Shown in pieces: positions 55,364-56,008 of a DNA stretch of 64,000 bases. The notes under the pieces were generated by a model. That model made no database searches, was not told the origin of the DNA, and saw only the letters and a program-made list of their open reading frames with translations. A program made the translations under genes and the position numbers. The stretch comes from a bacterium (GTDB lineage: Bacteria > Patescibacteriota > Minisyncoccia > UBA6257 > 02-FULL-45-10c): contig JAUYKI010000017.1 of the NCBI GenBank assembly GCA_030700025.1, forward strand, positions 2,748 to 66,747, written 5' to 3'. The first letter of the stretch is position 1. The number at the start of each line of letters is the position of its first letter.

Positions 55364-56008
55364 ATGCGAAAGATGATTTGTTCGGGCTTGATGGCCACGG
55401 CGTTAGTGGTTTTGTCGGCAGTTCCGGTTTTGGCTAATGACGACGAAGAAGTTTTGTTGGACAGCGAAGATACTTCCAGCACCGAATATACCGGAGTCAG
55501 AGAAATGTCTCTGGGCGCCCGGCTGTTTCCTTACGCGCCTTTGCGCGGCGGCATGGATTTCTTGTGGCGTCCCAAGTGGGGAATTTGCGCGGCCCAGATT
55601 GAAAACATCAATTATACCGCGGAAGTAAATGGCCAGCCGATTCATTGTACCGGCGCTGAACTTCATTTCGGCGGCGGCATCTGGTCCAATATGGAAAAAA
55701 CTAATTGGTGGGGCTATCATATTTATTTCAGCATGGTTTGGCCGCTAACGTGGGTTAGGAACGTTCAGGGTTCGACTAGATTTGCTTTTGGTAATGGAAA
55801 ATCTTTGGGCCTCGGATTGGATTTTTATCCGCGCATTTGGCGGGGTGGAACGATTGTTAGAGGAGATAAATTTGTCAGTTATTTCGCGGACGTTCAAGCG
55901 GCTTCCCGGTTATTGATAGTAGACTGGGGAGGTCAGCACAGCGACCGATTCTCATCTTCTATGTTTAAAAATATCACTTTCCAGGTCGGAGCCAGATACT
56001 GGTTTTAA
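55364..56008 (+). CDS. Secreted protein with outer-membrane-beta-barrel-like features
   Basis: Signal peptide ...VPVLA|NDD. Amphipathic aromatic-rich strands. The C-terminus QVGARYWF fits the beta-signal pattern ending in Phe. Confidence 0.5.
   Translation: MRKMICSGLMATALVVLSAVPVLANDDEEVLLDSEDTSSTEYTGVREMSLGARLFPYAPLRGGMDFLWRPKWGICAAQIENINYTAEVNGQPIHCTGAELHFGGGIWSNMEKTNWWGYHIYFSMVWPLTWVRNVQGSTRFAFGNGKSLGLGLDFYPRIWRGGTIVRGDKFVSYFADVQAASRLLIVDWGGQHSDRFSSSMFKNITFQVGARYWF

Follow-up and report, generated by a model that had tools for sequence, protein, structure and literature searches.

Patescibacteria (CPR bacteria) account for a large share of bacterial diversity and are treated as monoderm, and the ways in which they attach to their hosts and feed are largely mysterious. 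A monoderm cell offers no evident place for an outer-membrane-protein (OMP)-type barrel that bears a conserved beta-signal, and the DNA analyzed here, a stretch of 64,000 nucleotides (the window), encodes a protein that looks like one. What is this protein, and to which membrane could it belong? If a bacterium of a monoderm group encodes an outer-membrane (OM)-type barrel, either the barrel enters the outer membrane of a host, or the envelope of the lineage has been misunderstood. Our modeling points, with a probability of about 0.6, to a Sec-exported, lipid-embedded, eight-stranded beta-barrel of the OmpX/NspA/OmpA-TM structural class that is part of a host-interaction module. The evidence is in silico throughout: the predicted fold, the residue pattern, the beta-signal, the synteny, and the CPR affinity of the contig.

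As far as the data reach, the contig appears to come from a member of Patescibacteria/CPR, as a sequence-only reading of the window had supposed: the best LeuRS matches (58–67% identity) were to MAGs labeled Patescibacteria, except for one labeled 'bacterium'. Members of this phylum are described as monoderm (PMC11665869, PMC12102498). No OM-biogenesis genes were found among the annotated ORFs of the window, and Bam, Lpt, Lol, and Tol-Pal genes were missing both from the window, which spans 64 kb of a contig of about 99 kb, and from related loci totaling about 80 kb. The type IV pilus (T4P) operon has the order pilM, pilN-like, pilO, pilB and contains no pilP or pilQ secretin genes; no secretin was detected in the window or in two related loci (L092 and L097), and the secretin model (PF00263) did not match any window ORF. 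The barrel protein itself does not have a secretin fold, and a role as secretin substitute was rejected because of its size, as an eight-strand barrel with a filled lumen is too small to pass a pilus. Recent horizontal transfer or contamination was rejected as well. The barrel gene is native to the contig: its GC, GC3, and codon usage match, it has a conserved promoter of its own, its flanks are CPR-like, and it occupies orthologous positions in six other loci.

The features of the locus are collected in Table 1. The barrel ORF starts with ATG, preceded by a GGGAG ribosome-binding site (RBS). Its signal peptide, judged by rule from the sequence, has a hydrophobic core of 20 residues and leaves a mature protein of 190 aa. 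The cleavage site that had been proposed earlier (VLA/ND) stands, as the layout is that of a standard Sec signal peptide, with n-, h-, and c-regions arranged identically in 14 of 14 aligned family members. A lipoprotein identity was rejected, as there is no lipobox and Cys6 lies in the n-region. The acidic linker that follows differs in length between family members (gapped alignment columns). In the most conserved motif of the family, G105, W107, N109, G117, and H119 are invariant and S108 and Y121 nearly so; the motif is located at the barrel end that bears both termini. The C-terminal QVGARYWF, previously read as an OMP beta-signal, fits the pattern polar-x-G-x-x-hydrophobic-x-aromatic, which is complete in 9 of the 14 members. 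W213 is invariant, and W-[FY] lies at the C-terminus or at most two residues from it in all 14.

Table 1. Features of the barrel locus and its surroundings (positions in the window).
Feature	Position	Strand	Evidence
Type IV pilus cluster: PilM, PilN-like, PilO, PilB, PilT, PilC, major pilin, PilD, three minor pilins	37751..47806		Pfam
Two secreted giant surface proteins: 799 aa (InlB-B repeats) and 991 aa (LVIVD + Kelch)	48077..53453	+	Pfam, signal peptides
Secreted 548-aa Kelch/InlB-B-repeat adhesin	53457..55103	+	Pfam
Sigma-70-type promoter of the barrel gene, TTGACG-17-TAAAAT	55261..55289	+	Promoter scan, 10/12 matches
Conserved box GCGTTC[TC]TTAA (GCGTTCTTTAA), predicted 5' end of the leader	about 55297-55307	+	Orthologous spacers
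9-bp hairpin directly upstream of the RBS	55328..55346	+	Inverted repeat; window-specific
Barrel-protein CDS, 214 aa, stop codon included in the span	55364..56008	+	ORF list, family alignments, AF2 model
Sec signal peptide, aa 1-24 (MRK, hydrophobic core, VLA/ND), predicted	55364..55435	+	Sequence reading; AF2 helix at residues 2-17
Acidic linker, aa 25-46 (NDDEEVLLDSEDTSSTEYTGVR), predicted disordered	55436..55501	+	pLDDT <50 at residues 17-36
Eight-stranded antiparallel beta-barrel domain, aa 47-214, predicted	55502..56005	+	AF2 model
Family motif of highest conservation, G-[YI]-W-S-N-x-x-K-x4-G-x-H-x-Y, aa 105-121	55676..55726	+	Family alignment
C-terminal beta-signal-like motif QVGARYWF, aa 207-214	55982..56005	+	Family alignment
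Intrinsic terminator 3' of the barrel gene	56029..56056	+	Terminator scan; inverted repeat
Secreted 324-aa LVIVD-repeat beta-propeller, conserved neighbor of the barrel gene	56119..57093	+	Pfam LVIVD
139-aa protein with N-terminal hydrophobic anchor and Pro-rich C-terminus, conserved module member	57163..57582	+	Termini comparison

The AF2 model, built with 14 sequences, reached a pLDDT of 82.6 and a pTM of 0.72, with the five models spanning 81.5–82.6. It shows a closed antiparallel barrel with an even number of strands (residues 48-55, 58-68, 74-88, 91-107, 116-133, 138-154, 170-187, and 193-213) and both termini on one side. The barrel of 8–10 strands expected from the sequence-only reading is thus predicted to have eight, and the five strands that had been picked out by eye coincide with the first (48-55), fourth (91-107), fifth (116-133), sixth (138-154), and eighth (193-213). 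All of the top 50 Foldseek matches were OM barrels, and in both structure searches the best matches were all membrane barrels, with clearly higher scores.

The residue pattern of the strands fits a membrane barrel. On one face, 91% of the residues at 40 alternate positions in 14 sequences were hydrophobic, 1.3% charged, and 26% aromatic, with high variability (entropy 1.99 bits), while the other face had 25% Gly and 21% charged residues and was better conserved (1.34 bits); the faces were picked by inspecting hydrophobicity, which makes these statistics partly circular. Aromatic residues cluster at W68, Y106/W107, W116/Y118/Y121, F154/Y155, and Y212-F214. From residue size and pattern, we infer that the hydrophobic face points outward, toward lipid, because bulky aromatics on one side and Gly/Ser on the other would fit a narrow eight-strand barrel only in this way. 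The turns on the side away from the termini are of 2, 2, 4, and 5 residues, and they cap strand extensions of polar, variable sequence. Those on the termini side are of 5, 8, and 15 residues and bear conserved motifs. In classical OMPs, the periplasmic turns are short and unconserved and the outer loops are long. The termini-side turns of our protein are, on the contrary, the longer and conserved ones, which may count against an OMP-type reading.

The closest structural parallels are the small eight-stranded OM barrels of diderms (OmpX/Ail/Lom, NspA/Opa, the N-terminal domains of OmpA and OprF, OmpW, and TtoA of Thermus). Like them, the protein has a Sec signal peptide, a closed eight-stranded antiparallel barrel with the termini at one end, a hydrophobic belt with an aromatic girdle, and a polar, Gly-rich lumen; as in OmpX and NspA, the strands run past the belt as variable hairpins, and the C-terminal ...G-x-R-x-W-F resembles the ...G-x-G-Y-R-F endings of small OM barrels. 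It differs from them in the lack of detectable sequence homology (hhalign probability below 1%), in being encoded by a phylum described as monoderm, in having its longest and best-conserved turns on the termini ('periplasmic') side, and in being embedded in a T4P/adhesin/propeller module instead of standing alone.

Kinship by sequence with a described OMP family was sought and none was detected. The barrel query did not match any model in Pfam or NCBIfam, and in a Pfam search with all 14 members at E values up to 10 there was nothing significant, a weak OprF match of a single member (E 0.07) included. Phmmer and profile searches of the PDB did not match the barrel, and the low hhalign probability was obtained against OmpX, OmpA-TM, and OmpW. 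No relative was found among GTDB species representatives searched with family patterns, and a metagenome scan with a hand-made degenerate motif pattern gave one true fragment (L094) and one chance match (L093). The family is small and well defined, with about 17 members, 15 of them full-length, among billions of proteins; judged from these searches, the protein probably founds a new, very rare sequence family confined to one small lineage of Patescibacteria. It has no paralog in the window, where it is a single copy, nor in related loci beyond the expected copies. The barrel also evolves much faster than its neighbors: it is 27–29% identical between loci, as compared with 61–75% for LigA, GatA, PilT, PilC, and the propeller, and 52% for the small Pro-tailed protein.

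The location of the gene within a pilus/adhesin island, pointed out from the sequence alone, is borne out by the annotation, as the T4P cluster and the secreted giants lie upstream and the propeller follows (Table 1). The conserved order comprises pilus genes, a giant adhesin ending in ...EILPF, the barrel, the LVIVD propeller, the small Pro-tailed protein, and LigA. The tail of the adhesin (...FKDIREILPF, encoded at 55071-55100) recurs in L095, L096, L082, and L097, and the EI[LI]PF tail is present in five loci. The propeller gene adjoins the barrel gene in the window, L082, L091, and L097, at 59–66% identity, and the T4P cluster adjoins it in the window, L092, and L097. The Pro-tailed protein, which has no Pfam match, is 52% identical to its homolog in L082, where the 799-aa and 991-aa surface proteins have homologs, too. 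For L097, position alone had led us to expect a barrel, which the HMM then found (E 2e-33). The barrel probably belongs to a conserved host-interaction module beside type IV pilus genes. In L088, the barrel gene lies in a housekeeping context away from pili, and thus the module link is not universal. The T4P systems of Gram-positive bacteria and the pilus-adhesin islands of CPR bacteria share with this locus the set pilMNO-pilB-pilT-pilC-pilin-pilD without a secretin and the giant secreted repeat adhesins beside it. What this locus has beyond monoderm T4P systems is a conserved addition made up of barrel, propeller, and EILPF-tailed adhesin, and we know of no monoderm T4P system with an OMP-type barrel partner.

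How such a protein could act may be pictured as follows. The precursor would be exported via Sec and its signal peptide cut after VLA, and the barrel would fold into a lipid layer beyond the cytoplasmic membrane, with a hydrophobic belt of about 10 residues per strand and the aromatic girdle at the termini-bearing end. The conserved termini-side turns (RPKxG, WSNxEK, DFYPR, RxWF) would face back to the epibiont and bind a partner, for which the LVIVD propeller is the most plausible candidate, with the adhesin tail reached through it, while the polar, fast-evolving hairpin extensions would project on the far side. In this way, the barrel would serve as the membrane anchor of an attachment apparatus, with docking partners and target membrane that we infer.

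The chances seem even that an OMP-type barrel of an epibiont does integrate in a non-cytoplasmic lipid layer, be it a host outer membrane or mycomembrane, where it would insert itself as a docking anchor for the adhesin/propeller complex of the pilus, or an unrecognized outer membrane of CPR cells. Insertion into the outer membrane of a diderm host and a non-canonical envelope were the two scenarios of the sequence-only reading, and they stay the leading ones. We rank a host layer above an outer layer of the cell's own, and the latter above its cytoplasmic membrane. The outer membrane or mycomembrane of the host at the contact site is our tentative choice, an unrecognized outer lipid layer belonging to the CPR cell appears rather doubtful, and its own cytoplasmic membrane, entered from outside, quite unlikely. 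For one patescibacterial parasite, infection was found to need the outer lipid layer of the host (PMC11880426). Insertion into a host would liken the barrel to pore-forming toxins of the alpha-hemolysin and aerolysin classes, which are secreted and insert hairpins without host machinery, and the trans-side hairpin turns, short here as well (2–5 residues), are a further likeness. Unlike these toxins, the barrel is predicted to be a monomer with eight pre-closed strands and a filled lumen, and not an oligomer with one hairpin per subunit; it lacks a soluble head domain, and a pore is not expected. No mechanism is known that would let a monoderm place an unfolded barrel in the outer membrane of another cell, and in the absence of BamA, SurA, or Skp the barrel would have to fold spontaneously. 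Conservation of a beta-signal usually means that an Omp85 protein recognizes it, which argues for such a protein somewhere, in the CPR cell or in the host.

According to a rival view, the lineage is not a simple monoderm but has kept or built an outer lipid layer. The barrel would be a resident OMP of this layer, with an Omp85-type machine encoded elsewhere in the genome, and its fast-evolving hairpins would face the surroundings as they do in OmpX or NspA. A cognate Omp85 would be the simplest explanation of the conserved beta-signal, and the design is canonical (signal peptide, eight strands, belt, aromatic girdle, C-terminal beta-signal). Variable far-side extensions over a conserved termini side follow the usual pattern of surface versus periplasm, and the contig, with citrate synthase, PrpD, and acyl-CoA ligase, encodes a richer metabolism than is typical of CPR genomes. 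However, a secretin would be required for a pilus to pass through an outer membrane, so the missing pilP and pilQ speak against this view, as do the Bam, Lpt, Lol, and Tol-Pal genes missing from the window and related loci and the description of the phylum as monoderm. In addition, a true outer membrane needs many OMP families, whereas the window has one family in one copy. A resident OMP is rather improbable in our estimate.

Two further explanations may be considered. One is a soluble secreted barrel of eight strands, akin to avidin, lipocalins, or YceI. Its interior would be hydrophobic, and it might serve to carry or scavenge lipid, or a different ligand, on behalf of a cell that cannot make its own lipids. 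The alternation of hydrophobic and polar residues alone cannot separate inside from outside, CPR bacteria depend on scavenged lipids (PMC11665869), and the contig encodes an acyl-CoA ligase. Nevertheless, this is unlikely, since membrane barrels top both structure searches, the strands (15–21 residues) are much longer than in soluble eight-strand barrels, the Gly-rich face is better conserved in a manner atypical for a solvent-exposed surface, the 40 hydrophobic positions with their aromatics would probably not fit inside such a barrel, and a conserved W-F at the C-terminus would serve no purpose in a soluble barrel. The combination of a hydrophobic core inside, a polar outside, and short strands does not seem to be what the protein has. 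Alternatively, a membrane barrel enzyme comparable to PagL, PagP, or OMPLA could use Ser108/Asn109-His119-Asp153 to strip acyl chains from host lipids or remodel them where the two cells touch, feeding the epibiont fatty acids. S108 (13 of 14 members), N109, H119, and the invariant D153 lie on neighboring strands at the same barrel end, and CPR bacteria have a lipid-scavenging lifestyle, with phospholipases proposed for them (PMC11665869). Judged by residue parity, H119 and D153 belong to the small/polar face that lines the lumen, and the conserved residues appear to face the lumen at the termini end, which together with the lack of sequence matches to PagL, PagP, and OMPLA models makes an enzyme very unlikely. 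In PagL, the catalytic triad faces lipid, and small OMPs commonly hold conserved polar networks in the lumen that are purely structural, as may be the case here.

Should the barrel be inserted into a host outer membrane, it would represent a new attachment mechanism, for which the barrel, the LVIVD propeller, and the EILPF-tailed adhesin beside the pilus offer a handle, and the first example of a bacterium planting an integral barrel in the membrane of another. Should it reside in an outer layer of the CPR cell, it would challenge the monoderm assumption for at least one lineage and bear on the diderm-to-monoderm debate, and an unrecognized outer membrane would be a remnant of the diderm ancestry that has been proposed for Terrabacteria.

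As to the expression of the gene, a conserved leader hairpin had been suggested. The hairpin exists, yet it is not conserved, because it lies (at 55328-55346) within an insertion of about 40 nt that is missing from the orthologous leaders of L095 and L096. A riboswitch or other conserved leader structure was rejected, as both the hairpin and a 125-nt structured element are missing from the orthologous spacers, and an Rfam search gave no match. The promoter and the GCGTTC[TC]TTAA box, in contrast, are kept in the orthologous spacers of L095 and L096, and the barrel gene, closed off by its intrinsic terminator, is a monocistronic unit.

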